Assembly (NCBI GenBank): GCA_021650915.1
Contig: CP091279.1
Coordinates: 1,500,001-1,532,000 of the forward strand
Direction: 5' to 3'
DNA from: Candidatus Brocadia sp.
GTDB taxonomy: Bacteria; Planctomycetota; Brocadiia; Brocadiales; Brocadiaceae
Length of the DNA stretch: 32,000 bases
The translations under genes were made by a program, and so were the position numbers. Below, in pieces: positions 4,717 through 23,276 of this stretch. Every line of letters starts with the position of its first letter. Positions within the stretch are counted from its first letter, which is position 1. Below the pieces are notes generated by a model, which did not search any database, had not been told where the DNA came from, and worked only from the letters and a program-made list of their open reading frames with translations.

Positions 4717-4732
4717 GAATAGAGTTCAATGA

Positions 4733-4755
4733 AGAGCGACGAGGCTCGTCGTTCT
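4733..4755. repeat. REP-like palindrome, copy 2 (AGAGCGACGAG-G-CTCGTCGTTCT)
   Basis: 11-nt arms with one G:T (wobble-compatible) mismatch, between nqrB-like and nqrC-like genes. It accounts for the first ~15 codons (MKSDEARRSANRIDK) of the track ORF that starts at 4729. Confidence 0.75.
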
Positions 4756-4773
4756 GCAAACCGCATAGATAAA

Positions 4774-6932: not shown

Positions 6933-6946
6933 AATGGATTACAGAA

Positions 6947-7225
6947 ATGAAGACCGTCGGCATAGATAAAAGTGAAATTATTAATTTCCTGAGGTTAGAC
7001 CTGATATCTGAAATTCAGGCCACAAAAAAATCCTTAGAACTTTTTGAGAAAAAATATAACAAGTCATTTAAAGAGTTTGAAAAGGAAGTATTAGAAGGGG
7101 AGGAGGAATTTGTAAAATGGGATGATTATCTGGAGTGGAGGGCATACCGTGATACCTATAAAGATCGAATGAAGGATCTGAAAAACTTAAAAGATGAGAA
7201 AAACATTAAGGTTATTATAAGGTAG
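6947..7225 (+). CDS. Small charged coiled-coil protein, possible partner of the downstream DUF6516-like gene
   Basis: 92 aa. LELFEKKYNKSFKEFEKEVLEGEEEFVKWDDYLEWRAY resembles small helical antitoxin-like proteins I recall (pattern FE.KYG.S.EEF....E..F..W). The region is AT-rich compared with its flanks. Confidence 0.55.
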   Translation: MKTVGIDKSEIINFLRLDLISEIQATKKSLELFEKKYNKSFKEFEKEVLEGEEEFVKWDDYLEWRAYRDTYKDRMKDLKNLKDEKNIKVIIR

Positions 7226-7283
7226 CGCTATAATCAAGAAGTACGAGACGCTGGATGTTAAATTAGGAAAAGATTTTTATTAT

Positions 7284-7544
7284 TTGAAAATAAGGGCTGA
7301 TATTAAAAATAACACAGAGCTATATTTAAGAGAGTATATGCGTATTGGAGATGAAAAATATTCCTATCACTGGCAGGAAAAGGAAGGAAAATTAATTACC
7401 AGATGGGATAACGCGCCACACCAAAAGGTAAAAACGTTTCCCCATCATAAGCATCTTTCAGATGGAACCGTGGTTGAATCATACGAGATTACGCTGGAAA
7501 AAGTATTAAAAAGCATTGAAACGAAGCTCGGAGTAAAACAATGA
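7284..7544 (+). CDS. DUF6516 / TumE-family toxin-like protein; N-terminus uncertain
   Basis: YSYHWQEKEGKLITRWDNAPHQKVKTFPHHKHL matches the remembered family signature Y.YHWQ...G.L..RWDNAPHH....FPHH.H. The frame is open back to 7221 (..IIKKYETLDVKLGKDFYYLKIRADI) with no ATG or GTG, so the TTG at 7284 is the only conventional start. ATGA overlap with the nqrF-like start. Confidence 0.7.
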   Translation: MKIRADIKNNTELYLREYMRIGDEKYSYHWQEKEGKLITRWDNAPHQKVKTFPHHKHLSDGTVVESYEITLEKVLKSIETKLGVKQ

Positions 7545-9169
7545 CCATATCCCTCTTCCTTGGTGCGGGCATTCTGGCCTTATTGGTATTGCTGCTGAGC
7601 ATCTTCAGCGAGGTTATTTATCAATTTTTCGGACGCGGTGAAAAACGTAAGCTCACCATCGTAAGCGATGATGAATACAAAAAGGAACTCGATATCGAAG
7701 GCGGTGAAAAACTGCTTTCACTCCTTCAGAACCGGGGCTTTAACATTCCTGCCGCCTGCGGCGGTATGGCGACCTGCGGCCAATGCAAGGTAAAACTCCG
7801 CACCGATGTCGGTACGTATAACGCGGTAGAAATCCCGCATTTTGACCTGCGTACAAGAGAGGCATCGAGAAAATTCTTAGAGGAGGGGGCGGGCGATGGA
7901 TATATACGGCTGGCATGCCAGGTCCGGGTTGACAAGGATGTAAGCCTGTATCTGCCAAAGGACACATTACACGTCAGAAAATACACCGCCCGGGTAATTA
8001 AGAAACGGGCGATTACCAGCGATAAAATGGAGATGTGGCTACAGCCATCAAGGCCGATTCAGTACAAACCAGGCCAATACATCCAGCTGGCAATCCCGGA
8101 AGATTTTGTGGAAGAGCATTATAAAAAATACGGGAATTTCATTAAAGAGGCATGTAAGACTCTGGGAAAAGAATTTATTCCCTATGTGCCCGGGACAACG
8201 TTGTACCGGGGCTACTCACTTGCATCCACGGAACCAGACATCCTGAAGCTCATCGTTCGCATGGCCCCTGCTCATCCGAGCATGTCAATAGAAAAAGGTG
8301 GACCTCCCTGCATAGGGCCTGCTTGTGTGCATACCTACCTTTTAGAAAGGAGTCTGTGGAATTTTTTCCGCGGTGAAAAGATACGTTTTACGGGACCGTA
8401 TGGCCATTTTACGCTGAAAGAAGAACCGCATACCGCGGTCTTTGTTGCCGGTGGCGCAGGCTTAGCGCCTATTTTAGCCCTTCTGGAACAATGGTTCCAG
8501 GAAGGCCGGCAGGATACAGCCATCTTTTTCCTGGGGGAAAGGCGATTCCAGGATATTCCCATGGTCTATTTGCCCAAGTGGCTGACCTGGCAGCAAAAAA
8601 ATCCTCAGTTTAAACTTGTGCCGGTACTTTCCGGCGCATTTCGCGGCGACAACCCCGCTGAATTGAATGATCTTGACAAGAACTGTCTTTCTTCGCTTTC
8701 CGTGGAGGCCAAACGCCTCGTGAAAGAACAGGGGTTTGTGGATGAGCAGGAAAATCATTGGAAGGGCGAAGTCGGTTTTATTGGACCCCTCCTGAGAAAG
8801 TATCTCTCGGCGGATCAGAATATTGTATTTTACCTCTGCGGGCCGTCACCCATGACCGTCACCGTCATCGATTCAGCAGCGAACCAGTTGAATCTGAAAA
8901 AAGAAGATGCCCTCTTTGACGATTTTACCGGCACGCTCACCCCTTCAGTCGATCTGATCTATCAAAAGCTTGAAATTAAAGAACTGCTGTATCGTGCATC
9001 TCTACCCAACGCCGATAAGCTCATTGAAAAGATTGGCCAAATCCTCATTATTCAACTGATACTCAAAGACAAGATCGAAGAAGGCTACCGCTTCCTTGAC
9101 CAGGTAAGGGAATCCCTGGGAAAGTCTGCACAGGAACTTGAATTGATGCTCTCCGCCTATAAGAGTTGA
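7541..9169 (+). CDS. nqrF: NqrF-like subunit (TM anchor, 2Fe-2S ferredoxin, FAD/NAD(P)H reductase) with a C-terminal extension
   Basis: N-terminal TM ISLFLGAGILALLVLLLSIF. CGGMATCGQCKV...LACQV (plant-type 2Fe-2S), YRGYSLAS (RxYS FAD motif), VFVAGGAGLAPILALL and YLCGPSPM (NAD-binding). 542 aa against roughly 400 aa that I recall for typical NqrF. Confidence 0.9.
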   Translation: MTISLFLGAGILALLVLLLSIFSEVIYQFFGRGEKRKLTIVSDDEYKKELDIEGGEKLLSLLQNRGFNIPAACGGMATCGQCKVKLRTDVGTYNAVEIPHFDLRTREASRKFLEEGAGDGYIRLACQVRVDKDVSLYLPKDTLHVRKYTARVIKKRAITSDKMEMWLQPSRPIQYKPGQYIQLAIPEDFVEEHYKKYGNFIKEACKTLGKEFIPYVPGTTLYRGYSLASTEPDILKLIVRMAPAHPSMSIEKGGPPCIGPACVHTYLLERSLWNFFRGEKIRFTGPYGHFTLKEEPHTAVFVAGGAGLAPILALLEQWFQEGRQDTAIFFLGERRFQDIPMVYLPKWLTWQQKNPQFKLVPVLSGAFRGDNPAELNDLDKNCLSSLSVEAKRLVKEQGFVDEQENHWKGEVGFIGPLLRKYLSADQNIVFYLCGPSPMTVTVIDSAANQLNLKKEDALFDDFTGTLTPSVDLIYQKLEIKELLYRASLPNADKLIEKIGQILIIQLILKDKIEEGYRFLDQVRESLGKSAQELELMLSAYKS

Positions 9170-9498: not shown

Positions 9499-12400
9499 AT
9501 GATAAAACCTATTGATAATGAATCGAGAGAAATTGCAGTATCCGAACGGGAGAGAAATATCGTTGTTATTGCCGGGGCCGGAACGGGGAAGACGACCCTC
9601 CTGGTAAATCGGGTGCTGCATGTGCTTCTGGGTCACAAACGGCTGCAGAAAGAAGAAAGCCCCATCCTCAGAATCGTAGCCATGACCTTTACGGAAAAAG
9701 CCGCCAGTGATATGAAGGTAAGGCTGATGGGCGAGTTGGAAAAGATTGTTGCCGTTATCAAGGGAAATGCCTCGCCAGAAGAACAGATAAAGAGAGAGAA
9801 ATTTCTCGCGCATATCCGCGATACATACCATACGACCCTTGCAGAGATTGAACGCCGCGCAAAAAAGTCTCTGGAGGATATGGACAAGGCACTGATCGGG
9901 ACGATTCACAGTTTTGCCGCCCATCTGTTGCGTCTCTATCCCCTCGAATCGGGCGTAGTGCCAGGATTTATCGTGGATGAAGGCGATGTATTTGAGGAAA
10001 TGTTTGACAAAGAATGGAGCAGATGGATTGCAGGCGAACTTACGCTGGATTCTTCCCGCGCGCACCTCTGGAAGGACGTATTGCGGCGATTAGACCTTGA
10101 ATGCATGAAGGAACTGGCAAAGAAGCTGTCTGCGTTTACCATTCCCCCGGATTCCCTTACGTCACCGGCAAACGATGCATCCATCGTCCAACCCCTGATC
10201 GATTTTCTTGCCCATAGAATTACGAAGATCGTGGCTTCCTGCGGGAAGCAGAAAAACAATCTTGTCCTGCAATTGAATGAGTTATCAAACATTTTCGATG
10301 GTATCAGGAAGCACGGTATTGACTACGTGAATACCCTGACATACGACCTTGACAAAGACCCCTCTAAGGCAAAAAAAGATTGGACGGAGGAAGGGTTTGC
10401 GGCAGCACAAAGACTCGTAAAGGAAAGTCATGGGATGTTAAAGAAACTCAGGGCCGTTGATCATGCCTTTCTTACCGCAGCGACAGACCTCATCCTGCCG
10501 TTTGCGAAGACCTTTCGGCAAACGTATCTGTCGCAGGGCTATGTCTCGTTTGACGGGCTTCTTACCCTTACCAGGGATTTATTGCAAAAGAAAGAGTGTC
10601 GCCACGTTCGTGAAAAGCTAAAGGACGATTTTCGGGTAATCCTTGTCGATGAGTTCCAGGATACCGACCCCGTCCAGTATGAAATCGTCCTCTTTCTTTC
10701 TGAGTCGCTGGAATACTACAGCACGGATGCACGGAAGGTTATCCTTGAGGAAGGCAAACTTTTCATCGTGGGCGATCCCAAGCAGTCTATTTATGCCTTT
10801 CGCAGGGCGGATATTGAGGCGTATGAATATGTGGTGAAGCAGGTGTGCGGACAGGATGAGCCATTGAAATTGCAGGAAAATTTCAGAAGTCATTCCGGTA
10901 TCATCGAGGTGGTAAATCAGCTCTTTGACGGAAGAATCATGGTGGAGCAGCCGGGCTTACAACCACGCTATATCCCGATCCATGCACAGAGACAAAAGAG
11001 ACACTCCTCTCAGAAAGTTGAGCTTGTGCTGGTTTCTGATATAGAAGGAAACGAACTGAGTGCAAATGAGGCCAGAGAGGCAGAGGCAGAGTGGATTGCA
11101 CGCTGGATTGCAAACCACGTGAACCGGGAAACCATGGAAGATCCCCTGGCTGCAAACGGGGTTCGTACGCTTGTTTTCCGGGACGTTGCCCTGCTGTTGC
11201 GCGCATTTACTCAGGTGAGGCCGTATGTTGAGGCGTTCAAACGATACGGCATCCCGTACATCGTGGAAGGGGAAAAATACTTCTATACCACCCAGGAAAT
11301 CCTCGATTTTATCAATCTTCTGCGCGTCATCGGAAATCCTCACGATCTGGTTGCGCTGGTGGGCGTACTACGCTCACCTCTCGCAGGCTTAACCGATCGT
11401 GAAATCTATGAACTTCGGGTACATCATTCACTGGATTACCGCAAAGGCGTCTTGGAAAAAATCCCTGAAGATTACGGAATAAAAGATACGGATTGTCATC
11501 CTCTTCAAACTCACAAGCAAGAAAAGGAAAAGCCAAATCTATCTGCTGAAGCAAAGGAAATCGCAGAATCTTTCTATGCTTTTTTACGAGAAATCCATGC
11601 CCGTGCCGGCATCATTCCCGTCTCTCAGCTAATCGCAGAGATCCTGGACAGCGCCCATATTGCCGAGATTACCGCAAGCGCCTGGCATGGCGAACAGAAG
11701 CTGGCCAACCTCTGGAAGCTCCATCGGATGGCTTGCGATATGGAAGAGTCGGCAGGTATTTCACTGCAAACCTTCGTTGGCCGTATCAAGACGCACATCA
11801 GGGAGGGGCGGGAAGAAGGTGAGAGCCCGCTTTCGGATGAGACGCTGGATGTCGTGAAAATCCTTACCATCCATAAGTCGAAGGGGCTGGAATTTCCCGT
11901 TATTATCCTCGGCAATCTGCACGGTGAAGTACGAAATGACCACGAGGTTTTGGACGGAGCGGTATTTGATTGGTCTACGTCTACAACCGGCATTGTGGTT
12001 GGACGGGGGAATCAACAGGTAAGGAATCTGCAAAGCATGGTGATCGAAAAGAAACTGAATGACCGGTCGTGGGAAGAAGAGAAACGCGTCCTGTATGTGG
12101 CCATGACCAGGGCCAGGGAACGGTTGATCCTTACGGGATCAGAAAAGGGAGATGATAAATCGTATATGGGAATGATCACCCAATCGGTGAAGGATGCCAC
12201 AGGCATGGAGCCTGGCAATGAAGATAAAACAGCAGATAAGGAAAAATCCCCCCTCCCCTTGCAGGAAAAGGCTGGGGTAATGGGCGTTTCTCAAGGAAAA
12301 TTCCCTTTAGGAAACGCAGAGATCTTTGTTGAGCATTTCAGATTTGATGGAATACGTCATCCACAAAAGGCAGTTAAGGAAAAGTTTTTGAATGCCGACT

Positions 12401-13299
12401 GGACGGCCTTTGTTGAAACATGGAAGAAGAGAGAAGCAGAAATGGCTGAGGCGCTGAAGAGGCCGCTCTTTGTCTCTCCAACGACAATAGCTGACGAAGA
12501 AGCAATGGAAAAAGACGGACCCATAGCACAGAGGAGCACCAGGAAAATTTCTCATTTTCAGCCTGGTACGTCCGAACAACCTCGACCGGAAAATTATCCG
12601 CTATCTCCTCCCAACGGCGGAGGGGATAGCGGAACGGTTATGGCAAAGAAAATTCAACCTGATACTGGGCAACCGTATCCAGGGCAATCAGCGGTAATCG
12701 GTTCCCTTTGCCACCGGGTACTGGAGGGATGGGATTTTCGCGGAGATTCCCAGAAACTGCAAAGCTCCGTCGAATCAGCCGTAGCATGGGCCATTGCCGT
12801 TCAGAAAAATGAGCTAAGGTCGCCTGATCAACCTTTCGGGCAAGACCTTCACTATCAAAAGGAAGGGGCTATGTCTTCTGAAGGCGAGGAAAGAGGGAAG
12901 ATTCCAGGGTTTCATAAAACGTCCTCTGGAGCGACGGTATTTCAGGATGCGGAATTGATAAAAGCAGAGGTAATAAAAATCTTGTCAGCCTTTCTTGCCT
13001 CAGAGACATACCGGGAGTTGCAGGCCGCACAAATCCTTGGACGTGAGATACCCATCCTGCTTCATTGGGATGGGCAGGTTATGAGGGGTACTATTGATAT
13101 CCTTTACAAGATGGGCGACCGTGTCATCATTGCTGATTATAAGACAGATCGCGTCACCATGACTGATCTGACTGCAAGGGCAGAAAAATACCGCTATCAG
13201 AAAGAAGTCTACGCGGAAGCCGTCAAACGCTGTCTAAAAGTAGACAATCCTGAGTTTAAAGTTATCTTCCTGAGAATTGGCATGGCGGTGTCGGTTTGA
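9499..13299 (+). CDS. UvrD/AddA-type superfamily-1 helicase fused to a PD-(D/E)XK (RecB-type) nuclease
   Basis: AGAGTGKTT (Walker A), VDEFQDTDPVQ (motif II), VGDPKQSIYAFRRAD (III), ENFRSHSGI (IV), IHKSKGLEFPVIIL (V), LYVAMTRARERLILTG (VI). C-terminal nuclease motif GTIDILYKMGDRVIIADYKTD plus YRYQKEVYAEAV. Confidence 0.9.
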   Translation: MIKPIDNESREIAVSERERNIVVIAGAGTGKTTLLVNRVLHVLLGHKRLQKEESPILRIVAMTFTEKAASDMKVRLMGELEKIVAVIKGNASPEEQIKREKFLAHIRDTYHTTLAEIERRAKKSLEDMDKALIGTIHSFAAHLLRLYPLESGVVPGFIVDEGDVFEEMFDKEWSRWIAGELTLDSSRAHLWKDVLRRLDLECMKELAKKLSAFTIPPDSLTSPANDASIVQPLIDFLAHRITKIVASCGKQKNNLVLQLNELSNIFDGIRKHGIDYVNTLTYDLDKDPSKAKKDWTEEGFAAAQRLVKESHGMLKKLRAVDHAFLTAATDLILPFAKTFRQTYLSQGYVSFDGLLTLTRDLLQKKECRHVREKLKDDFRVILVDEFQDTDPVQYEIVLFLSESLEYYSTDARKVILEEGKLFIVGDPKQSIYAFRRADIEAYEYVVKQVCGQDEPLKLQENFRSHSGIIEVVNQLFDGRIMVEQPGLQPRYIPIHAQRQKRHSSQKVELVLVSDIEGNELSANEAREAEAEWIARWIANHVNRETMEDPLAANGVRTLVFRDVALLLRAFTQVRPYVEAFKRYGIPYIVEGEKYFYTTQEILDFINLLRVIGNPHDLVALVGVLRSPLAGLTDREIYELRVHHSLDYRKGVLEKIPEDYGIKDTDCHPLQTHKQEKEKPNLSAEAKEIAESFYAFLREIHARAGIIPVSQLIAEILDSAHIAEITASAWHGEQKLANLWKLHRMACDMEESAGISLQTFVGRIKTHIREGREEGESPLSDETLDVVKILTIHKSKGLEFPVIILGNLHGEVRNDHEVLDGAVFDWSTSTTGIVVGRGNQQVRNLQSMVIEKKLNDRSWEEEKRVLYVAMTRARERLILTGSEKGDDKSYMGMITQSVKDATGMEPGNEDKTADKEKSPLPLQEKAGVMGVSQGKFPLGNAEIFVEHFRFDGIRHPQKAVKEKFLNADWTAFVETWKKREAEMAEALKRPLFVSPTTIADEEAMEKDGPIAQRSTRKISHFQPGTSEQPRPENYPLSPPNGGGDSGTVMAKKIQPDTGQPYPGQSAVIGSLCHRVLEGWDFRGDSQKLQSSVESAVAWAIAVQKNELRSPDQPFGQDLHYQKEGAMSSEGEERGKIPGFHKTSSGATVFQDAELIKAEVIKILSAFLASETYRELQAAQILGREIPILLHWDGQVMRGTIDILYKMGDRVIIADYKTDRVTMTDLTARAEKYRYQKEVYAEAVKRCLKVDNPEFKVIFLRIGMAVSV

Positions 13300-13388: not shown

Positions 13389-15905
13389 TCATTTTGTTGC
13401 GGTCTCTTCCAGTTTCTTTAAGCGCCGCAATTTCACCGCCTCGTCCTGGATACGGGTCAGGTTCCCCATCGTTTTGGCGGTGCCCCACCACCAGCTGATG
13501 TCCTGCTGGGCATGGGCGGTGCCTTTGTACCCCTGCAAATGGTTCCAGAACCACATCTCGACATACTCCTGTTCTACGCCGCTGGGATTCCCATCGTTTT
13601 GGCCAAATATGGCGTAGGCGCCCAGTACCGGCCCGATAACCGGGAGGTGGCCACTGGTCTTTTTGAAAAGGCTATACACTTCAGGACCCAATTCCTTCGG
13701 GCTCAACAGTTGAACAATTAAATCGCTTAAGGGAAACGGCGACCTTTGTTCCGGAGAGGGTGTAATCATATCTTTTGCAAAGAGCTCTTCTACCATGAGC
13801 TGCGCGTCATCGATGCGCCTCCATGATTCAAACATGTACTGATCCAGGGAATCAAGCCACATGCTGGCAAACCGGTTGCTATGGCATTTGGTGCACATTT
13901 CCACCCAAGAGCGGCGTTTTGCCTTGCTTTCCGGGGAATAGATTTCCAGTTTCTTGTCCATGGGCGGTATCGTTATTCCGTAGGGGAAATCTTTGATTCC
14001 CGATTTGAATTCAACTTCCTTCGGCGGAATAACGCCCATCCGCCATATCCCTTTCGTCTCGACATTCATCTCCCAGCGGCCATCCCCAACATACATGTGG
14101 CAGTACTGGCATGTTGGAGCAGGATAATCAACCCCGGGAATGACCTCAGAGAGTTTCTTGTCCCAATTCCATTTCTCCCCGGAGATTTGATAAATAATCC
14201 CCCACCGGGAATGTTGATAGCTTTCCCAATCCGGGTGGTCTGGTCCCATATGGCATCCGGAACACACCTCCGGGCGGCGGGCTTCGGCCACGGAAAAGAG
14301 ATGTTTGCCGTGACAGTCGTCACACGATGACATATTCTGGTGGCATTGGTCGCATCCGATCATCGAATACCGTTCACCGCGCCGGTAGTTTTCCACATAC
14401 CAGGGAACGGATACCGTAGCCTCCCAATTCTGGGGATGACTGGGTCTGCCATGATCTCTCCCCTTTGCGAATTCTTTCGCCTGCTGAGGATGGCACACTC
14501 CACAGGCATTATCAACGGTAGGCATGAATAATTTTTCATGATTATCCCCATGACAGTAGGAACAGTATACCCCATTCATTGTCCCCGGCTCCCAGTTGTT
14601 GAGCTCTTTGCCAATTAATTCCTCAATCTCCTGGGTCTCTGCTGATACTTCCCGGTTTTTTTTCGGATTGGCATGATTTGAGATCTTCCACTGAGCCACA
14701 ATTCCCGGCGTGGACTCTTCGTGACATTCGACACACTGCTCTGGCCGATATTTGCTCAGGAGTTCTTTATAAGTCACACTATCAGGCGGGATATAATGTC
14801 TCGCTGGATTAAAGTACATATAAAACGGTATCGGTTTATAAAATTCTCCCCACGGACCATCACCTTGCGCCAGACCAACAAAATCCTCATACATTTTCTT
14901 GAGGGATGCATCGGGGTATTCATATGAGCCTGGGGGTGCATTAAGGGTTGGAGCGCTCTTTACGTCAGAAGACATCCTGGGGTTCTCTTCTTTTTTTTCC
15001 ACAACAAAAATGCCAAACATACCATTCACCATGTGGTCATGAAAGTGGCAGTGGAACGCCCAATTTCCCGGCCCAACCCCTTCCCCTGCGGTAAAGTCAG
15101 CAATATGCGACGTAAACGGAGCCAATGAAACGTTGTCAATCAACGCTCCGCTTGCCTTGTCGACCCACCGGTGTCCGTGCGTATGAAAGGTATGCATCTC
15201 CTCAGAGGTATTAACCACATGAAACCGCACCTTTTCCCCTGCGGTTACCCTCCATACCAATCCGGGGAATGCGGAACGGTCACCGTTCATAAACTCAATA
15301 TCACCGGATTTATCATTAAACGCTTCATACTCAACGCCATTCACCCTGTATGAGTGCATGAAGACAACAAATTCCTTATCAGGAGGGCTTGGGTCGCCTT
15401 CTTTTGGCTCAATAATCAATGCGCCCCAGAGTCCGCGGGAAAGACCTTCATCTCCGCCCATCTCCAGGGCATGGGTGTGATAAAACCATGTGCCAGGCGT
15501 GCCGATGGTATCCCATACATACGTCATCGATTGTCCGGGTTCAACCGTGCTGGTAGGATTGCCTGCTATATGAGCGCCATCATTCGCAGCGGTATATTTC
15601 ACTCCATGAGGATGAAGCGAGGCGGGAACGGACAGCTTATTGGTAAAGTATACCCGTACCTTTGTCCCTTCCCGTACTTTTATGGTAGGCCCAGGCACCG
15701 TGGGATTTTCGCCTTTTCTGCAATACCCCCAGGCATCAAAAAATACGCCTGGTCTCAGCTCCAGCGCAACCGGACGCGCTTCCATTTCCAGGTGAACAAC
15801 GCCATCTCTTTCTGACAAACAGGGGATTTCGGCATCCACCCTGCATACCTGTAAGAAAAAGCTTGCCATGATTACCATGCCAAATGCTACCCGCTTGGCA
15901 ACCAT
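13389..15905 (-). CDS. Exported fusion: two-domain multicopper oxidase (NirK-related cupredoxin pair) plus octaheme hydroxylamine-oxidoreductase-like cytochrome c; putative encapsulin cargo
   Basis: Signal peptide MVAKRVAFGMVIMASFFLQVCRVDA. Cu motifs HPHG, YHTH, HTFHTHGH and HCHFHDHMVNGM. Eight CxxCH motifs follow: CVECH, CSYCH, CGVCH, CDQCH, CDDCH, CSGCH, CQYCH, CTKCH. The start lies 3 nt after the encapsulin stop, with GGAG 7 nt upstream. Confidence 0.95.
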   Translation of the reverse strand: MVAKRVAFGMVIMASFFLQVCRVDAEIPCLSERDGVVHLEMEARPVALELRPGVFFDAWGYCRKGENPTVPGPTIKVREGTKVRVYFTNKLSVPASLHPHGVKYTAANDGAHIAGNPTSTVEPGQSMTYVWDTIGTPGTWFYHTHALEMGGDEGLSRGLWGALIIEPKEGDPSPPDKEFVVFMHSYRVNGVEYEAFNDKSGDIEFMNGDRSAFPGLVWRVTAGEKVRFHVVNTSEEMHTFHTHGHRWVDKASGALIDNVSLAPFTSHIADFTAGEGVGPGNWAFHCHFHDHMVNGMFGIFVVEKKEENPRMSSDVKSAPTLNAPPGSYEYPDASLKKMYEDFVGLAQGDGPWGEFYKPIPFYMYFNPARHYIPPDSVTYKELLSKYRPEQCVECHEESTPGIVAQWKISNHANPKKNREVSAETQEIEELIGKELNNWEPGTMNGVYCSYCHGDNHEKLFMPTVDNACGVCHPQQAKEFAKGRDHGRPSHPQNWEATVSVPWYVENYRRGERYSMIGCDQCHQNMSSCDDCHGKHLFSVAEARRPEVCSGCHMGPDHPDWESYQHSRWGIIYQISGEKWNWDKKLSEVIPGVDYPAPTCQYCHMYVGDGRWEMNVETKGIWRMGVIPPKEVEFKSGIKDFPYGITIPPMDKKLEIYSPESKAKRRSWVEMCTKCHSNRFASMWLDSLDQYMFESWRRIDDAQLMVEELFAKDMITPSPEQRSPFPLSDLIVQLLSPKELGPEVYSLFKKTSGHLPVIGPVLGAYAIFGQNDGNPSGVEQEYVEMWFWNHLQGYKGTAHAQQDISWWWGTAKTMGNLTRIQDEAVKLRRLKKLEETATK

Positions 15906-15908
15906 GTC

Positions 15909-17027
15909 TTACTCCAGAGTACAAATCGCTTGCGGGCATTTAATCCTGAGCACCGAACTGCCAACGACCCGGAACCGATGATTCAGGTTTTCCGGACCGC
16001 AGTACTCGACCTTAAAATTCCCCCCCACCGCCAAATCCGCATTTTGCCTGCCGGCTGCCATAACAAGGGCAACGTCTTTTTTCAGCACGGGGCTCTGGTA
16101 CACACCACCCTTCACCATCTCTTTTACCGCATCGATCTCTAACTTTCCCGTGCGTTCATACACCTTATGGAGCAATGCATAAAGCCGCGGACTCACCACA
16201 AGGGTATACGGCGGGAAAAATCCGGTATTCCTTAACTTCTCAACCGCAGCCACCACGTCCTGAAACCCGTTGCCAATGGCCGACCAGTCGCTAAGCTTCA
16301 TGATATTGCGTCCATTCACATTCAATAGTCCCGCCATGTTCATGTCCGGCAACCCGTTAAACACCAGGTCGTCTTCACGGGCGGCAGTGGCCACAGCTGC
16401 TCCGATTGCGGCGCTGGTATCGAGGGGAATTTCACCCTTCTTGCTCGCTTCGAGATCTCTCCAGAAGAGCCAGAAATCTTTGTAAATGACCGGTATATGC
16501 GCAACATCCCGCTTGAGTGAATGAATGGCATTGTCAGCCTCTCCAAGCATATCGACCGTCGCCCACGACGGAAGTCCAAACGTATCGATGGACACACACT
16601 GGCTTCCCACACCGAGGGGGCCATACGTTTCCAGAAACTTTCTGCCTACAAGACATTTTTCAATTGTTTCATGGACATGCCGCTGTAACTTTTCCCAGTC
16701 TTCGCGTCCCATTTCTCTTTCAGAAGAACCGCCTTTACCACCGCCCCCTTTTTCTTCCCCACAGGAACCCTTGCCACTACAGGAATCATTGGATGATGCC
16801 GCCAGATTTTTGGGGACCGCATGACAAGCAAGACAGCCCTGATTCAGATACTGACAATCTTTATGGACATTCCTCAATTCCTGGGAAGAATGACATGAAA
16901 AACAATCGTTTTCCTTCGTGCATTTTGCGTAAACAGGAGAAGCATTTTGCGGCAGGTAGAAAAGGGCAGATAGAGTAAAAATCCCGATAAACTGATATTT
17001 TTTGCAAAAATTCTTATAAATCTTCAT
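15909..17027 (-). CDS. Signal peptide + diheme cytochrome c + family-1 encapsulin shell protein fusion
   Basis: [34 protein letters not shown], then CFSCH and CLACH, then a Gly/Ser linker ([18 protein letters not shown]). The remaining ~270 aa align by eye to the remembered T. maritima encapsulin ([47 protein letters not shown]...FKVEY). Start set at ATG 17027 (GAGGAGG 8 nt upstream) rather than the track start at 17051. Confidence 0.9.
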   Translation of the reverse strand: [372 protein letters not shown]

Positions 17028-17181
17028 AAATATTGCCTCCTCATGGTTCAAATAATGTCTCAGAAATCGAATACCACTCCCCTTGTATTCTGCACTTCAC
17101 CTCGCTTTCTCCTCATCAGGCAGCAATAATTCTTAGATCTTTATGTTCATCAGATAACATCTTTTTTTTCATTATTCCAGC

Positions 17182-17209
17182 ATTATACTCCTTAATTTAG
17201 AAATTTCCA
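17182..17209 (-). promoter_or_regulatory. Candidate sigma70-type promoter upstream of the encapsulin gene
   Basis: The minus strand reads TGGAAA (17209-17204), a 16-nt spacer, then a perfect TATAAT (17187-17182), about 150 nt upstream of the 17027 start. Motif match only. Confidence 0.35.
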
Positions 17210-17267
17210 GCATTTATTCTTTTGTGATGTGACTCTCTTGCCCTCCCGTACGGCAGCTTTATCACCG

Positions 17268-17789
17268 TCATCTTGATGGCATACTTGCGTCCTTTTTAGG
17301 CGGCTCAGAGCCTTGCAAACAACTGCGCAGATCCTCTTCAATATGTTGCGGATCCGTGTAGCCTTCCTCTCTGTGTTCGAGCTCCCCATCTTTATAATAG
17401 CAGATCAGGGGAATTTTCTTTACCTGGTAAACATAACTCATTTCCTCTTTGTCCCTTGCCATGAGAACCGGAAAGGTAATTCCTTTTTTTTCAATAAACT
17501 GCTGCACCGCTTTCGGCTTATCATCAAGCGAGACGCCTATGATTTCCACGTTCTTGTTCTTGTATTTTTCGTAAAGGGTGCTGAGTTCCGGGAGATGCTC
17601 CACACAGATACTGCACCACGTTGCCCAGAACGTTACCGCCACGATTTTATCCTTATTTGACCGGATAACCTCTTTCAAATCCGTAGACGTAACCACCTCC
17701 ACATCCCTTGCAAAGCCGACTCCTGGTAAAGACAGCATCGCAAACAACGTTAACAATAATGCCCTTCTGAATTGACCTACCATAGACAT
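17268..17789 (-). CDS. Exported TlpA/ResA-like thioredoxin-fold thiol:disulfide oxidoreductase
   Basis: Signal peptide MSMVGQFRRALLLTLFAMLSLPGVGFA. Active site FWATWCSICVEHLPEL (WCxxC), followed by IIGVSLDD. Strong SD AAAGGAGGGGGGGAG upstream. Confidence 0.85.
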   Translation of the reverse strand: MSMVGQFRRALLLTLFAMLSLPGVGFARDVEVVTSTDLKEVIRSNKDKIVAVTFWATWCSICVEHLPELSTLYEKYKNKNVEIIGVSLDDKPKAVQQFIEKKGITFPVLMARDKEEMSYVYQVKKIPLICYYKDGELEHREEGYTDPQHIEEDLRSCLQGSEPPKKDASMPSR

Positions 17790-17829: not shown

Positions 17830-19470
17830 TTATGGGCTGAAGGAACATCCTGCGCCCCTGCCATACTTGAAACTCTTTTCTTCTCCCCGCATGAACCTTT
17901 TCATCATACCCGGGGACCCATCAAAGACTAAACTATTCTGAGGCTTATCCGAAACAACCAACCACTCGGCGCCCGGAAAAACCGTTGCGAGTTTTTCTCT
18001 TTCCTTTGTGTCTTTCATAAAAAGAACGGTTGCTGCAACTCCCGCCTCTTCCGCAGTGGGCGCTCCCACTATCACGGCAAGATTTTCATTCGCTGACGGC
18101 CTTCCCGTTCTCGGATCCACGAGGTGCATCGAAAATTTATCCTGTATCGCAGGATACTTCGAATAATCGCCAAGGAATGCCACCCCTTGATTCACCAGAT
18201 GGAGAGCGCCTACGATAGTATCTTCCCTAACGGGGTGAGGAATCCCCACCTTCCACGCATCTTTCCCGGAAGGGGCATTAAACATACGACTCATGCTTCC
18301 ATAGTTCATGCAGACATTCGTGACCCCGGAATTACGAAATATCTCCAATGCCTTGTCTATTGCATATCCCTTTATTACCGGCCCCAGGTCGATTTGTGTC
18401 TTTTTATGAGCGAAAGAAATTGTCCTATCATCGTCAAGCGCCTTTATATTTTTATAAGAGACCGCGGGAATGATGGCCTCAAGTTTATCTGCTTTTACCT
18501 CTTTTGGTTTACCCCGGTATATTCCCCACTGCTCCAATAGCGGAGCAACCGTTACATCAAACCCCCCTTCCGTAATCACCCCATAGTGATAACACCGTTT
18601 CATTACCGCGAATACCTCTTCGTTGCAGGCAAAGGCGGTCTTCGCCGCAACCTTATTCATCGTCTGTAATTCCTTCCTGAAAAGCCATTCAATGCGCTCT
18701 ATCTCATTGAATGCCTTCGTTGCCAGCGAAAAGAACTGCCGTTCGCTGTCAGCTTCCGCAGCAATGACGGCTTTCACTCCCTCGATAACCCTTGCCGTGG
18801 TGAAGAGTTGCCGGTGCGTTATTCTCGCAGCCCTGACTTCATCAGGGGACATGCGATGAGCCAGGGATGCAGAGTCGGGATTTTTATTGATGTAAAATTC
18901 ATGAATAAACGCAAGCATCTTTTTCACGCCACGGCAAACTGCCTGCACCGAAGTCGTAGCGCCCGTAATCTTAATAATGTCCTTATTCGTCGAAAAGGGG
19001 TCTTTCAGGGACTTGCCTTCGAACTGCTTCAGAAATCTCTTCCGGCTGACCTCCTGTCCGCGGCTTTCTCTATAGATCATCACCGCAACATCAAGAACCT
19101 TTCCCTCAGTATTGGCGCTGAGAATCCATGTAATTGGATGAAAACAGCCCATTTCCTCGGTAATAATGGCATACCGGTCTGTCACCGGACCCTTTTTGCC
19201 TATAAAGACCTCAAAGGTTGATTCAATATCCGGTCTTTTCAAGAATCTCTTGAAATATTCCAGCCCTTCAGGGGTAAGGGTAAGAACCTCAGATTCGATC
19301 TGATCGCACCCATCAAACACCTTTGCAATGGCCTCATCTTCCTCCATGAAGACCTGAAGCTGGTAGTTTTCCGGGGGCTCCCCTTCTTCAAGGAAGGACT
19401 GCCCCGAAGACAATCTCGAAAAAAGAAGAATGCTCCACAGTAAGAGCAGAGAAAACAGATACCTTTTCAT
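17830..19470 (-). CDS. apbE: Exported FMN-binding domain fused to an ApbE-type flavin transferase
   Basis: Start reset to MKRYLFSLLLLWSILLFSRLSSG (ATG 19470). FMN_bind-like FLKQFEGKSL...IKITGATTSVQAV. ApbE landmarks GGFDVTVAPLLEQWG, QIDLGPVIKGYAIDKAL and HLVDPRTGRP. The 56 upstream codons of the track ORF cover the promoter-like repeat and carry no signal peptide. Confidence 0.85.
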   Translation of the reverse strand: MKRYLFSLLLLWSILLFSRLSSGQSFLEEGEPPENYQLQVFMEEDEAIAKVFDGCDQIESEVLTLTPEGLEYFKRFLKRPDIESTFEVFIGKKGPVTDRYAIITEEMGCFHPITWILSANTEGKVLDVAVMIYRESRGQEVSRKRFLKQFEGKSLKDPFSTNKDIIKITGATTSVQAVCRGVKKMLAFIHEFYINKNPDSASLAHRMSPDEVRAARITHRQLFTTARVIEGVKAVIAAEADSERQFFSLATKAFNEIERIEWLFRKELQTMNKVAAKTAFACNEEVFAVMKRCYHYGVITEGGFDVTVAPLLEQWGIYRGKPKEVKADKLEAIIPAVSYKNIKALDDDRTISFAHKKTQIDLGPVIKGYAIDKALEIFRNSGVTNVCMNYGSMSRMFNAPSGKDAWKVGIPHPVREDTIVGALHLVNQGVAFLGDYSKYPAIQDKFSMHLVDPRTGRPSANENLAVIVGAPTAEEAGVAATVLFMKDTKEREKLATVFPGAEWLVVSDKPQNSLVFDGSPGMMKRFMRGEEKSFKYGRGAGCSFSP

Positions 19471-19486
19471 AGTCACAGCTTTTAAA

Positions 19487-19540
19487 AACTCCTCAGATTT
19501 TATAAGAGATAGAATGTCGTTAAGCCAGGAGATGCCTCTT
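19487..19540 (-). repeat. Promoter-like repeat, copy A (upstream of apbE fusion)
   Basis: 33 of 39 core positions are identical to 23494-23549 by hand alignment. The minus strand reads CTGGCT, 17 nt, TTATAA, then GAGGAG. Confidence 0.5.
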
Positions 19541-19561
19541 GTACAGAATCTGCGATGCTCT

Positions 19562-19717
19562 TTAGAAAAGACAGAAAATAAGCGATAAAGAGAGCAATGA
19601 CGTCCCTCTTTGAGCCGCAACAGATATAGCAAAAACATCCCTTCGTCTTTGCCTCTCCGGCGACATTGTAAACTTTCCTTCTGCCGGTTTTTTTACCATT
19701 TGTATAATCTTCTCCAT
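19562..19717 (-). CDS. Small 51-aa ORF below the track cutoff, unknown function
   Basis: Hand translation gives MEKIIQMVKKPAEGKFTMSPERQRRRDVFAISVAAQRGTSLLSLSLIFCLF*. It is preceded by GAGAGGAGG with a 7-nt spacer. It lies between the ATPase stop and the apbE promoter-like repeat. No homology recognised. Confidence 0.3.
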   Translation of the reverse strand: MEKIIQMVKKPAEGKFTMSPERQRRRDVFAISVAAQRGTSLLSLSLIFCLF

Positions 19718-19812: not shown

Positions 19813-21909
19813 TCAGGCCATTATCCTCTCTTCCCCTGCAAGGGGAATGCGATATGGCTTCAGTGAATTTGCGGATACGAGAATTGTTGTTGCATTATGT
19901 ATGAGGGCTGATGTTACCGGAGTTATCATCCCCAAGATACCGAGGCCTATTAAGGCACTGTTAATTCCAATTATATATCTGAAATTCTGTTTAATGCGGA
20001 ACATGGCATCCTGGGCAATCCACCGGGCATCAACAATGCCTTCAAGCCCCTTGTCCAGGAGCAAGATATCGCAGGCTTCTCTTGCGATATCTGCACCATG
20101 TTTCATAGATATGCCCACATCTGCGCAAGAGAGAGCAGGGGAGTCATTAATACCGTCACCAACCATTGCAACTACATAACCTTTGCTTTTTAAATCTTTA
20201 ATTATTCCGGCCTTTCTTTCCGGAAGAGCCTGGGCGTAAAATTCCTCTATCCCAAGTCTTTGCGCTACATTACGCGCCGTAGCATAGTTGTCGCCAGTAA
20301 GCATGATGGTTCGATTCACGCCAGAATCCTTCAGCATCTTGAGAAATATTTGCAAATCATCCCTTACCCGATCTTCAATGGCTATAACACCGGCAAGATT
20401 GTTTTCCACAGCCACGTAAAGCACCGAATAGCCCCTGTCCATAAAATCTTTTATCACAGACTCCTTACCTTCCACGTCAATCCCATTGTCGTCAGAGATA
20501 AAGTGCTTACTCCCTACCAGCATTCTTTTCCCTTCAATCCTTGACACAATGCCATGGGCAAGAACATACTCAATCTCTGCATGGTTCTCTTCATGAACCA
20601 GCCCTTCATCTTCTGCCTTTTTAACCACGGCAGTTGCCACCGGATGTGGAAAATGTTCTTCCACACATGCAACGTTTTTTAACAACTCTTCCCGATTAAA
20701 ACCGTCGAAGGTAAGAATATCAAAAACCTTTGGCTGCGCCTCTGTAAGCGTTCCTGTCTTGTCAAAAACAAAGACGTTTGCCTCCGCCAGTTTTTCCATA
20801 AACTTACCACCTTTTACGAAAATATTTTGTCTTGCTGCGGCTATCATTGCGGACATAATCATGAGTGGAGTTGATAATTTCAAGGCACATGAATAATCTA
20901 CCAGCAAGATTGAGGTGGCCTTTATCGAACTGCCGGTAAAAAGATAGATTAGTCCGCTTAGGATAAAACTATAGGGCACAATCCTATTTGCGAGCATTTC
21001 TGCATGGTTCTGCACATCCGCCTTTAGGCCTTCCGATCCTTCAATTACTTTGATTATTTTGGAGACCCTTGTTTTATCACCTACTTTGATTGATTTTATT
21101 GTTAAGAGGCCTTCTTCCAGGACCGTGCCAGCATAAACCATTAATCCCGCCCGTTTAGGCACAGAAAATGGCTCACCCGTGATTGAAGACTGATTGACCA
21201 GCGCCGCACCATCAGCTACAATACCATCCACAGGAATGCTGGAACCCGTTCTTACCACCACAAGATCGCCCACCACTACTTCCTTTATATTGATCTGCAT
21301 TTCACAGCCGTTCCGTCTTACCCACGCCCACCCATTCTGATTCAGGAACATCTTTGAAATGCTTTCCCTTGATTTTTGACGTATCCGTTCCTCGAGGTAA
21401 TCGCCAACCTTCAGAAAAAATGTAATGAAACCCACCGTGAGATAATCACTTCTCAGCAATGAAATACCTACCGCCGTGGAGTCGAGGACATCAACGTTCA
21501 GACGTTTGTTCAGGATTGCGCTAAAGCCTTTTTTCAGGACAGGCATAGCGCCATAGAGAGAGAGGAATGGCGCCATTGCCACGGGTATCATTGATCGCGC
21601 AATCAAGAGCGCCCCCGATAGCATTGCAGCCTTCTTTTTCTGTTTAAGTTTATCTTGTTTAAACGTTTCTTTTTTTACAAAAATCAATGACGTCTCATGC
21701 AGTATCTTTAATAAGACCACTTTCACAGCGCCGTCGCCGTTGTATATGACCAGGATATTCCTGGTTCGGCGATTAAAGGATACCTTCTGAACCCCATCGA
21801 CAGCCAAAAACAATCTTTCAAGCTGGGAATTCTCCGGGGTATGCCTTTTCGGTAAGGCGAGACTAATCCTTATCCTTTGAGGGAGATCGTGAACAATGTC
21901 ATACTTCAT
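19813..21909 (-). CDS. P1B-type heavy-metal ATPase with a non-canonical transmembrane metal motif (YSCA in place of CPC)
   Basis: ITGEP (A-domain), FDKTGTLT (phosphorylation site), FPHPVA (HP motif), MLTGDN and MVGDGINDSPAL. The TM motif VDYSCALKLSTPL aligns to CPCALGLATP. The last TM reads IHNATTILVSANSLK instead of MxxSS. The N-terminal HMA-like fold has no CxxC (LPQRIRISL...GVQKVSFNRRTRNILVIY). Confidence 0.95.
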   Translation of the reverse strand: MKYDIVHDLPQRIRISLALPKRHTPENSQLERLFLAVDGVQKVSFNRRTRNILVIYNGDGAVKVVLLKILHETSLIFVKKETFKQDKLKQKKKAAMLSGALLIARSMIPVAMAPFLSLYGAMPVLKKGFSAILNKRLNVDVLDSTAVGISLLRSDYLTVGFITFFLKVGDYLEERIRQKSRESISKMFLNQNGWAWVRRNGCEMQINIKEVVVGDLVVVRTGSSIPVDGIVADGAALVNQSSITGEPFSVPKRAGLMVYAGTVLEEGLLTIKSIKVGDKTRVSKIIKVIEGSEGLKADVQNHAEMLANRIVPYSFILSGLIYLFTGSSIKATSILLVDYSCALKLSTPLMIMSAMIAAARQNIFVKGGKFMEKLAEANVFVFDKTGTLTEAQPKVFDILTFDGFNREELLKNVACVEEHFPHPVATAVVKKAEDEGLVHEENHAEIEYVLAHGIVSRIEGKRMLVGSKHFISDDNGIDVEGKESVIKDFMDRGYSVLYVAVENNLAGVIAIEDRVRDDLQIFLKMLKDSGVNRTIMLTGDNYATARNVAQRLGIEEFYAQALPERKAGIIKDLKSKGYVVAMVGDGINDSPALSCADVGISMKHGADIAREACDILLLDKGLEGIVDARWIAQDAMFRIKQNFRYIIGINSALIGLGILGMITPVTSALIHNATTILVSANSLKPYRIPLAGEERIMA

Positions 21910-22588: not shown

Positions 22589-22987
22589 CTACCTTCCAGT
22601 TGCCACTTTTATTGCCATTGGAATCAGGGCATTCAAAGGCATTGGTAATATCGCATGGGTAATTACATCCGCCAAGGCATGCCAGGCATGCCTTGCAACG
22701 GGTGGCTTTGAATTCTTTTCCTCCGTCAGAAACTGCCAGTTATTGGCAGCCCTCTCCGCACCCTCTTTCATGACCTGATTGATATATTGCGTTAAGGCCT
22801 GCCGGTCAATCTGGCGCTCATCAAAACGAACCAGTATCCTCCCTGTTTTGTGATTTGCAGTTACCTCCGTCACTCCTCCGAAATAATTCACGATGCTTTC
22901 CTTTAAATACCCGCAAATATGCGGTTTTCCAATAAGATATTGGCTTTCAAACCTTATTCTGCCCGGCAAAATACTTAATGGAGCCAT
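22589..22987 (-). CDS. HMA-like (HMA2-type) domain protein lacking CxxC
   Basis: Start reset to MAPLSILPGRIRFES (ATG 22987, GAGGAGG upstream). The motif LPGRIRF...GGVTEVTANHKTGRILVRFD parallels the ATPase N-terminus (LPQRIRI...GVQKVSFNRRTRNILVIY). The C-terminus is His-rich and hydrophobic: ARHAWHALADVITHAILPMPL. Confidence 0.7.
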   Translation of the reverse strand: MAPLSILPGRIRFESQYLIGKPHICGYLKESIVNYFGGVTEVTANHKTGRILVRFDERQIDRQALTQYINQVMKEGAERAANNWQFLTEEKNSKPPVARHAWHALADVITHAILPMPLNALIPMAIKVATGR

Positions 22988-23276
22988 GGTTTTTTCCTCC
23001 TCACCAAAGTTCTTTTTGACAAAACATTGAAATGGTCGCCTCGTACATTGGGGCGTCTTTCTAAAAGGACATAAATTGCACTTAAGATTTTTACTCATTG
23101 AATTATGAAAATTTTATCCGTGTCGGTACAATTTCTTTTCTGTCGTTATCTGTCTGTGTTCCGGAACGGAAAATACTAATCCGTTGTTTGGAACAAACGG
23201 TTTGTTTTCTGTATAACAATATCGTTTATACCATAGCGCGGCACTGCCGCAACCAATTCTCCGTTGTGAAAGCGGG

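Follow-up and report, generated by a model that had tools for sequence, protein, structure and literature searches.

A Brocadia-type pairing of a cytochrome-encapsulin fusion gene with a multicopper oxidase-HAO fusion gene

Genes and proteins of the locus

We analyzed a 32,000-nucleotide stretch of the Candidatus Brocadia sp. assembly GCA_021650915.1 (contig CP091279.1, positions 1,500,001 to 1,532,000; hereafter the window), in which two adjacent minus-strand genes encode an encapsulin shell protein fused to a cytochrome module (cEnc) and a fusion of a multicopper oxidase (MCO) with an octaheme HAO-like cytochrome (MCO-HAO), its putative cargo. The cEnc gene (15909-17027) runs from an ATG at 17027 to a TAA at 15909-15911 and encodes 372 residues, and the MCO-HAO gene (13389-15905) runs from an ATG at 15905 to a stop codon at 13389-13391 and encodes 838 residues; these are exactly the ends given in a first-pass annotation of this DNA. 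A Shine-Dalgarno sequence (GAGGAGG, 17036-17042) stands 8 nt 5' of the cEnc ATG. The frame could also be read from a TTG at 17051, but homologues start at the ATG position. The junction of the two genes reads CTGGAG-TAA-GAC-ATG, with a gap of 3 nt and a GGAG within the final cEnc codons, in agreement with the annotation, which had described the stop-to-start spacing and a Shine-Dalgarno sequence inside the last shell codons. The features of the two genes are the following.

15909..17027 including the stop, minus strand: cEnc, cytochrome-encapsulin fusion shell protein (open reading frame, Shine-Dalgarno sequence, hidden Markov model (HMM) and PDB matches)
16926..17027, minus strand: Sec-type signal peptide, cEnc aa 1-34, read from the sequence, with predicted cleavage after VYA
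16821..16925, minus strand: diheme c module, cEnc aa 35-69, C-x4-D-CFSCH ... E-x4-H-xx-C-x-Y-x4-CLACH (match to published motifs)
16713..16820, minus strand: flexible Gly/Ser/Lys linker with two Cys, cEnc aa 70-105 (predicted local distance difference test score, pLDDT, <50; length and composition variable in relatives)
15912..16712, minus strand: HK97-fold family 1 encapsulin domain, cEnc aa 106-372 (AlphaFold2 and Foldseek)
13389..15905 including the stop, minus strand: MCO-HAO, putative cargo (open reading frame; Pfam Cu-oxidase_3, Cu-oxidase_2 and Multi-haem_cyto)
15831..15905, minus strand: signal peptide of MCO-HAO, aa 1-25, likewise read from the sequence, with predicted cleavage after VDA
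14988..15830, minus strand: two-domain multicopper oxidase of the small-laccase type B, aa 26-306 (full set of type 1 (T1) and trinuclear-cluster copper ligands)
13392..14906, minus strand: octaheme HAO-like domain of the reductase type, aa 334-838 (eight CxxCH; Trp805 replaces the cross-linking Tyr)

The cEnc protein matches the family 1 encapsulin model of NCBIfam (NF041155, encap_f1; 9.8e-71, 238.2 bits, cut-off 100) and Pfam Linocin_M18 (9.2e-59, 199.2 bits, cut-off 24.3), and its best sequence matches in the PDB are EncA of M. xanthus (4pt2, 1.9e-73) and the encapsulin of Q. thermotolerans (2.4e-68). These matches lie far beyond chance and bear out the family 1 assignment made in the annotation. 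Its hand alignment to the T. maritima protein is consistent with a real match, albeit a weak one (3dkt, 1.4e-7, aa 108-369 against 13-261), EncA being much closer. An AlphaFold2 model of cEnc built from 43 homologues has pLDDT values mostly >90 over aa 106-372 and <50 over the N-terminal 100 residues. With the HMM thresholds exceeded and aa 106-372 predicted to be well folded, both checks proposed in the annotation, i.e. an encapsulin profile search and a prediction of the HK97 fold, turned out in favor of a shell protein.

In Foldseek comparisons, the cEnc model superimposed on M. xanthus EncA chains of T=3 shells with template modelling (TM) scores of 0.91-0.94 and a root-mean-square deviation (rmsd) of 1.3-1.8 Å. 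The T=1 shell of T. maritima gave a TM score of 0.79 (rmsd 6.7 Å, 20% identity), and T=1 shells generally gave about 0.78 with an rmsd of about 7 Å. Near-certainly, then, cEnc is a shell protein of the T=3/T=4 class in both sequence and structure. Shell size, which the annotation had left open, is thus open only in part, because the nearest solved shells are of the T=3/T=4 class. Those shells (M. xanthus EncA, Q. thermotolerans, and B. methanolicus) are iron-storage encapsulins. The identity of a prophage capsid was rejected for cEnc, since the phage capsid models remained below threshold (Major_capside, 19.6 bits, cut-off 26.8) and no phage genes lie nearby.

In the N-terminal 34 residues of cEnc, a basic n-region is followed by a hydrophobic core and an AxA-like end, an architecture common to all relatives; a signal peptide has also been predicted for the cEnc of Kuenenia (10.1101/085266; 10.64898/2026.06.22.733830). 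The diheme module that follows carries its CxxCH motifs at aa 42 (CFSCH) and aa 65 (CLACH) and exactly matches both published cEnc motifs, CxxxxDCxxCH and ExxxxHxxCxYxxxxCxxCH. The succession of signal peptide, CFSCH and CLACH motifs, Gly/Ser linker, and encapsulin noted in the annotation is therefore supported by the HMM matches, the fold model, and the motif positions. Among 12 orthologues, residues K38, D41, C42, C45, H46, E50, H55, K56, Y60, C65, C68, and H69 of the module are invariant.

The origin of the diheme module was sought with a 46-column profile in 1.84 billion representative proteins. Its matches were limited to the cEnc cluster (7e-23) and to multiheme cytochromes made of repeated doubled-CxxCH units, and no free-standing orthologue of the module was retrieved. 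The multiheme cytochrome P0203 has a spacing, CxxCH-x8-HK-x9-CxxCH, that is identical to that of the cEnc module. Homology to the diheme cytochrome Kustc0457 was rejected at the sequence level, because no chain of 6h5l was matched up to E=10; the best match of the module in this search was NrfH (0.067). In the linkers of the relatives P0002-P0020, the cysteines form G-x-C repeats (Brocadia) or the pattern PCVCPQG (Jettenia-like), and the linker of the window is shorter, with two Cys. These residues could be metal ligands or form disulfides.

The N-terminal part of MCO-HAO (aa 60-306) matches two-domain small laccases in the PDB at about 3e-33. All 12 Cu ligands (10 His, 1 Cys, and 1 Met) are present in four motifs, H98-x-H100, H143-x-H145, H238-xx-H241-x-H243, and H285-C286-H287-x3-H291-x4-M296. 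A NirK identity of this domain was rejected, since TIGR02376 reached 64.8 bits against a cut-off of 296.3, over one domain only, and the H-C-H pattern is of the oxidase type. We consider "laccase-like" a better label than the "NIR" of the literature, because of the laccase match and because the NirK model is widely missed. The octaheme domain (aa 323-838) matches the free-standing octaheme reductase Kustc0458 (6h5l_A) at 1.3e-164, Kustc0458 being a 58%-identical paralogue of this domain, and carries its CxxCH motifs at aa 391, 448, 468, 518, 528, 548, 599, and 671. The annotation had reported four Cu-ligand motifs and eight CxxCH motifs in an 838-aa protein, all of which we located, and its view of a laccase-like/octaheme-HAO fusion agrees with the matches to laccases and Kustc0458. 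Its count of 24 hemes and 12 coppers per trimer is arithmetically correct.

Catalytic heme 4 would be bound by C518-C521-H522, where H522 is aligned with the residue that ligates heme 4 in BpMHAO, the orthologue from Ca. Brocadia pituitae. A QQD(I/V)SWWWG motif is common to MCO-HAO and Kustc0458, and W805 of MCO-HAO aligns with W782 of BpMHAO, which occupies the position of Tyr467 of the N. europaea enzyme (10.64898/2026.07.28.741245). It is near-certain that the HAO domain is free of the cross-link and so of the reductase type. BpMHAO also has a 25-aa signal peptide according to SignalP 6 (10.64898/2026.07.28.741245).

Relation to known systems and variation across Brocadiales

The cEnc/NIR-HAO system was described by Giessen and Silver (2016/17) in four anammox genomes (10.1101/085266) and is listed also in PMC8346489. 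For Kuenenia, these authors obtained cEnc particles of 33 nm by transmission electron microscopy, or 29 nm when the cytochrome domain was absent, and recorded a c-type heme spectrum of the shell. The isolated Cu domain co-purified with the shell at about 30 copies per 180-mer, and at about 15 copies without the cytochrome module. The full-length NIR-HAO was insoluble in E. coli, and the cargo had no targeting peptide (10.1101/085266). A 2021 survey counted nine such genes, termed them T=3, and raised detoxification or iron storage as roles, and a 2024 review presented AlphaFold models only. The annotation had regarded the order of the two genes as the classic shell-then-cargo layout, which does not hold: core cargo genes usually lie 5' of the shell gene, and the cargo-after-shell order of anammox genomes is divergent (10.1101/085266).

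The locus of the window shares with that of Kuenenia the signal peptide, the diheme motifs, the flexible linker, the T=3-class family 1 encapsulin, and a MCO-HAO without a targeting peptide encoded directly 3' of the shell gene. It differs in sequence (about 64% identity to the Kuenenia shell P0022 and 70% to the cargo P0132) and in its linker, which is rich in Gly/Ser/Lys rather than in Pro/Ala/Gly. The trinuclear-cluster residues H145 and H287 are kept in the window, whereas Kuenenia has Y and Q at these positions, and the genes upstream encode a P1B ATPase, an ApbE protein, and a thioredoxin rather than Feo or CDF proteins. The locus is almost certainly a Brocadia-type orthologue of the already known anammox cEnc/MCO-HAO nanocompartment, and the equivalence to the kuste2478/2479-type system of Kuenenia that the annotation had drawn agrees with the HMM results, the matches to solved structures, and the fold prediction. 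Nothing in the window is categorically new; it provides a clean Brocadia-type example with an intact Cu site and tight translational coupling. Its host is a Brocadia-like anammox planctomycete (Brocadiales), full-length relatives of cEnc in Ca. Brocadia genomes being 81-88% identical and the flanking genes being syntenic with Brocadia contigs. A 333-aa fragment on a 1.2-kb Logan contig gave the only match at 100% identity.

BpMHAO (bpit_14680) is 84% identical to MCO-HAO over the full length, with the same Cu ligands, the same heme motifs, and the same Trp in place of the cross-linking Tyr, and its gene likewise follows a cEnc gene directly (locus L003), after a gap of 336 nt rather than 3 nt. 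In a July 2026 preprint (10.64898/2026.07.28.741245), T1, T2, and T3 Cu were detected in BpMHAO by electron paramagnetic resonance. The MCO domain was unstable and showed weak laccase activity, along with an O2-dependent ferroxidase activity of 0.24 U/mg, which maintained about 40 Fe per protein in solution and which the authors judged non-physiological. The Cu domain had no nitrite reductase activity. Extracts containing the HAO domain exhibited robust NH2OH reductase activity, with nitrite reductase activity not above the controls. BpMHAO was modelled as a trimer, and the study treats the enzyme as free, the encapsulin being nowhere mentioned (10.64898/2026.07.28.741245). Since both the Kuenenia shell and the BpMHAO cargo have been studied, the annotation's statement that it knew of no structural or biochemical characterization must be corrected, although it still holds for high-resolution structures and for the cargo of native particles.

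Four other known proteins or protein families resemble parts of the system. EncA of M. xanthus (4pt2, 7s20, 8vjo) is the closest solved shell, with 45% identity over the whole HK97 domain, but it is cytoplasmic, has neither a signal peptide nor a cytochrome fusion, and encloses ferritin-like cargo by means of C-terminal targeting peptides. The Flp-fusion encapsulins (Pyrococcus furiosus, 2e0z; structural match 6.8e-23) also carry a functional domain on the lumen-facing N-terminus, although in their case it is ferritin-like rather than a cytochrome and the protein is cytoplasmic. The Kustc0458/Kustc0457 HAOr complex (6h5l) has the same eight hemes, SWWWG in place of the Tyr, the C-terminal helix, and the pairing of an octaheme reductase with a diheme cytochrome; it differs by the absence of a Cu domain and of a shell and by the lack of detectable similarity between Kustc0457 and the diheme module of cEnc. 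Kustc0458 reduces nitrite, NO, and NH2OH and cannot oxidize NH2OH or N2H4 (PMC8042395). Finally, the type B small laccases (Streptomyces SLAC, 3cg8, 3tas) have the same four Cu motifs in the same order, with T1 in the second cupredoxin domain, whereas the domain of the window comes from an anaerobe, forms a fusion with an octaheme cytochrome, and has in BpMHAO an orthologue that is a weak laccase.

We retrieved 18 related loci (designated by L numbers, and their proteins by P numbers), which span Brocadia, Jettenia-like, Kuenenia, Loosdrechtia, Avalokitesvara, Hypogeohydataceae, and Scalindua-like lineages. In all 18, the shell and MCO-HAO genes are adjacent, with the gene order reversed in the Scalindua-like loci. 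A gap of 3 nt is found in eight loci (the window, L004, L007, L008, L011, L012, L013, and L015), and in several Brocadia genomes the two genes are about 90-340 nt apart. The shells of L008, L009, L012, L013, L015, and L016 (among P0021-P0046) have a signal peptide and a linker without any CxxCH and are still paired with MCO-HAO. Such an optional diheme module agrees with the published loading of the Cu domain, which was halved rather than abolished without the cytochrome domain. The presence of the module and the completeness of the Cu ligands showed no simple pattern across the loci.

Conservation within MCO-HAO was assessed in an alignment of 27 sequences, i.e. 21 fusions and 6 free-standing relatives. 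None of the 27 deviates in W805 or in any of the eight heme motifs. The Cu ligands vary across the family: Kuenenia-type proteins have lost H145 (to Y) and H287 (to Q), and the Scalindua-like fusions have lost the T1 Cys. Judging from these sequences, the hemes are the invariant core of the system, and the Cu site and the diheme module are dispensable in some lineages.

Several loci deviate further from this arrangement. In L017, a 333-aa heme-less encapsulin (6723-7724) lies directly upstream of a 377-aa cEnc (8001-9134), which is followed by MCO-HAO; this tandem suggests mixed two-component shells in that lineage. In L006 (Ca. Brocadia carolinensis, 3475-4608), both CxxCH motifs are encoded in frame 5' of the encapsulin core. 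The B. carolinensis encapsulin has been reported as not cytochrome-fused (PMC6934571), and we think that the gene call is probably truncated or its start damaged, because there is no in-frame ATG at the usual position. Two Scalindua-like loci, L014 (9151-10155) and L018 (9141-10145), contain a separate 334-aa cupredoxin/MCO gene after the shell gene, which may compensate for the loss of the T1 Cys. The Scalindua-type shells P0048, P0053, and P0055 have a His/Asp/Cys-rich insertion, e.g. HDHDSSENHNYPSHDRGHNHNHHGCIC, between the positions of aa 198 and 199 of the window cEnc; it follows the helix after the E-loop and could be a metal-binding loop.

Possible function and alternative explanations

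As a whole, the locus seems best explained by a heme-lined shell that encloses MCO-HAO and supports reductive HAO chemistry, an explanation to which we lean with some reserve. Of its parts, the encapsulation of MCO-HAO is probable, a reductive nitrogen chemistry as the core reaction is on balance likely, and a coupling of the system to iron is possible but doubtful. Both proteins have signal-peptide-like N-termini, which implies that they would be exported unfolded, presumably into the anammoxosome lumen, where the c-type hemes would be attached. The shell would close to a particle of about 33 nm with 180 subunits, and because the N-terminus of family 1 encapsulins faces the lumen, as many as 180 diheme modules, with 360 hemes, could line the inside of the shell on their flexible N-termini. 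MCO-HAO trimers, each with 24 hemes and 12 Cu, would be trapped with no need for a classical targeting peptide; contacts between the Cu domain and the shell would hold them, and the diheme module would help in docking. If each shell takes up the roughly 30 Cu-domain copies reported in the literature, about 10 trimers could be enclosed in each particle.

Protein electron carriers cannot cross the pores of an encapsulin, so that both the donor and the acceptor of such a compartment would have to be small molecules. Heme 4 of the HAO domain would reduce NH2OH and/or nitrite or NO, with electrons arriving along the heme wire; we take this reductive conversion as the core reaction because the HAO heme system is the invariant element. 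The diheme lining may relay electrons internally between trimers or buffer them, and the Cu domain may be a second catalytic or docking site whose chemistry is optional or lineage-dependent. The gene neighborhoods of the family point to the handling of a metal, probably iron; the small donor may be Fe(II), or the system may be linked to metal homeostasis in another way. Much of the fixed nitrogen lost from oceans and wastewater is removed by anammox bacteria, and to our knowledge this is the only encapsulin known to be membrane-exported and heme-lined. The comparative data, together with the small-molecule constraint imposed by a sealed shell, make a function centered on Fe(II) or NH2OH directly testable.

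Several observations weigh against the explanation of a heme-lined compartment for MCO-HAO. The co-purification of the Kuenenia Cu domain was observed in the cytoplasm of E. coli and concerned the isolated domain, not the full-length cargo (10.1101/085266). MCO-HAO has no classical targeting peptide and no GSL-type motif, and targeting-peptide motifs sought in this protein or in the neighboring Cu proteins gave no convincing candidate. The conserved C-terminal helix of MCO-HAO (LTRIQDEAxKLRRLK) is not a shell-specific signal, because it is common to, and inherited from, the free-standing HAOs of the Kustc0458 type. The diheme module is missing in lineages that possess the cargo and hence is not essential for loading or electron supply. 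Within the module itself, three invariant His serve two hemes, leaving one heme without an obvious distal ligand; K38, K56, and Y60 are invariant candidates for the missing ligand. With regard to the chemistry, hydrazine as the product of BpMHAO rests on a 2:1 stoichiometry of methyl viologen to NH2OH in cell extracts, and in the AlphaFold3 model of BpMHAO the nearest Cu-heme distance is about 33 Å, too far for direct electron transfer (10.64898/2026.07.28.741245).

Another explanation, which we consider unlikely, if the most likely of the alternatives, is an iron-oxidizing and mineralizing compartment, in which Fe(II) would enter through the pores and be oxidized at T1 or at the hemes, Fe(III) mineral would form inside, and under anoxic conditions the electrons would pass along the heme wire to NH2OH, NO2-, or NO at HAO heme 4 rather than to O2; the particles would then be the iron-rich puncta of about 25 nm in the anammoxosome. 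Fe(II) is an attractive donor in view of the gene context, the ferroxidase activity of BpMHAO (Fe(II) oxidation at 0.24 U/mg with about 40 Fe per protein kept soluble), the kinship of the shell with solved iron-storage encapsulins, and these iron-rich puncta, and the His-rich insertion of the Scalindua-type shells points in the same direction. Within 8 kb of the pair, seven lineages have genes for the transport or regulation of iron, arranged in different ways: FeoB, DtxR-like, and CDF genes directly upstream (L009/L010); FeoAB, FeoA-GGDEF, and CDF genes (L013); a CDF gene upstream and a VIT1/rubrerythrin gene directly downstream (L011); a DtxR-like gene (L012 and L014); FeoAB (L017); and DtxR-like and FeoB genes with a faint VIT1 match (L018). 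CDF proteins were recognized by Cation_efflux plus ZT_dimer, and DtxR-like proteins by Fe_dep_repr_C plus FeoA.

The same neighborhoods also limit this iron-based explanation. No iron genes were found within 8 kb of the pair in L008, L015, and L016, and near the operons of the window and of B. pituitae there is only a P1B ATPase, with no Feo, CDF, or VIT1 gene. The conservation of the neighborhoods is partly inherited synteny, and the proximity of iron genes may equally well stem from the iron demand of a heme-rich system; we regard the metal and iron genes beside the pair as a lead rather than a result. In addition, the ferroxidase activity of BpMHAO needed O2 and was judged non-physiological by its authors, and the modelled Cu-heme distance of 33 Å is unfavorable. 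The loss of the T1 Cys in Scalindua-like proteins and of two cluster His in Kuenenia means that the Cu site cannot be a universal ferroxidase. A more specific form, an anaerobic ferroxidase organelle that would receive Fe(II) from the nearby Feo/CDF/VIT1/P1B transporters, oxidize it at T1 or at the hemes, pass the electrons to NH2OH, NO2-, or NO, and mineralize the Fe(III), is improbable in our judgement. If true, it would explain mechanistically how iron-rich particles arise in the anammoxosome and link the literatures on the encapsulin and on BpMHAO, which now do not cite each other.

MCO-HAO could instead be an unencapsulated NH2OH reductase of the anammoxosome that feeds the hydrazine cycle, as proposed for BpMHAO, and cEnc could be a heme-lined particle with no cargo or a different one. 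The absence of a targeting peptide would be expected for a free enzyme, the BpMHAO study accounts for the enzyme without a shell, and the published loading covers the isolated Cu domain, the full-length NIR-HAO being insoluble in E. coli; the intergenic distances of about 90-340 nt seen in several Brocadia genomes also fit. We nevertheless find this improbable in the face of the strict adjacency of the two genes in 18 of 18 loci over deep Brocadiales lineages, even where the order is reversed in the Scalindua-like ones, the 3-nt coupling in eight loci, and the co-purification of the Kuenenia Cu domain with the shell. Moreover, a conserved neighboring enzyme is almost always the cargo in family 1 encapsulins.

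A compartment in which the MCO would use electrons of the heme pool to reduce O2 to water or peroxide and so protect O2-sensitive machinery is very unlikely. Laccase-based O2 removal was raised earlier (PMC6934571), and it would suit the full set of T1 and trinuclear ligands in the window, as well as the T1/T2/T3 centers and the O2-consuming activity of BpMHAO. Set against this are the weak laccase activity and instability of the BpMHAO domain, the eroded Cu ligands of the Kuenenia-type and Scalindua-type proteins, and the modelled Cu-heme distance of 33 Å, and the invariance of a reductase-type HAO would be left without a reason. The detoxification of NO or nitrosative stress, which was the original proposal (10.1101/085266) and is compatible with the NO reduction by HAOr-type enzymes (PMC8042395), seems highly improbable, since E. 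coli producing the Kuenenia cEnc was not protected from an NO donor (June 2026 preprint, 10.64898/2026.06.22.733830), even if this test is weak evidence because the shell was used without its cargo.

Neighboring genes and non-coding features

Upstream of the cEnc gene, the following features were recognized on the same strand.

17028..17111, minus strand: conserved leader of about 85 nt containing GAGGAGG, kept in six Brocadia loci, with the DNA further upstream diverging
17182..17209, minus strand: promoter-like TGGAAA-16 nt-TATAAT in the 240-nt gap 5' of cEnc (top site of the scan, 10/12)
17268..17789, minus strand: ResA/CcmG-like secreted thioredoxin (Pfam AhpC-TSA, Redoxin, and Thioredoxin; NCBIfam ResA 2e-23, below cut-off)
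17830..19638, minus strand: ApbE flavin transferase fused to FMN_bind (Pfam ApbE 2e-43, FMN_bind 4.6e-5)
19813..21909, minus strand: P1B heavy-metal ATPase with an N-terminal HMA_2 domain (TIGR01525 6e-152, above cut-off; Cu subfamily model below cut-off)

The promoter-like site is weak evidence only, because the number of sites in the region equals the expectation from shuffled sequence. This was the case for both promoters and terminators, and the scan gave no terminator 3' of the MCO-HAO gene. A direct repeat, TAATGCTGGAA, at 17175-17185 and 17205-17215 overlaps the promoter-like site and occurs in this window only. A structured RNA in the leader was rejected, since 17028-17111 has neither a consensus fold (-0.6 kcal/mol) nor a match to an Rfam family.

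The ResA-like thioredoxin gene adjoins the shell gene in L001, L003, L004, L006, L011, L013, and L017 and lies nearby in L014 and L018, and the ApbE/FMN_bind fusion recurs in L001, L003, L004, L011, L013, L014, L017, and L018. Genes for a myo-inositol-1-phosphate synthase and a DUF2325 protein also recur near the pair across Brocadiales. The P1B ATPase, which is kept upstream of cEnc in L003, has DKTGT at aa 383 and SCA at aa 340, in place of the expected CPC, CPH, or SPC. At 22589-23098, the minus strand encodes a further, separate HMA_2 protein, and small HMA_2 proteins together with the P1B ATPase occupy the corresponding position in the window and in B. pituitae.

Upstream of the encapsulin operon, on the same strand and at a distance of about 7-10 kb, are two further copper protein genes: a 660-aa multicopper oxidase of the PhsA/CueO-like type (24313-26295, minus strand) and a NirK-like gene (26657-27805, minus strand), whose product has a signal peptide and a visible T1/T2 ligand pattern and scores 275.6 bits with TIGR02376, just under the cut-off of 296.3. 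MCO and NirK genes have been reported beside the encapsulin of S. rubra (PMC6934571). On the plus strand, an operon for a membrane complex of the Rnf/Nqr type (2582-9169; an Rnf-Nqr subunit and a protein with Fer2 and NAD_binding_1) is syntenic with the Brocadia locus L005, and a gene for a 1266-aa AddA-like UvrD/PD-(D/E)XK helicase-nuclease (9499-13299) converges on the cargo gene.

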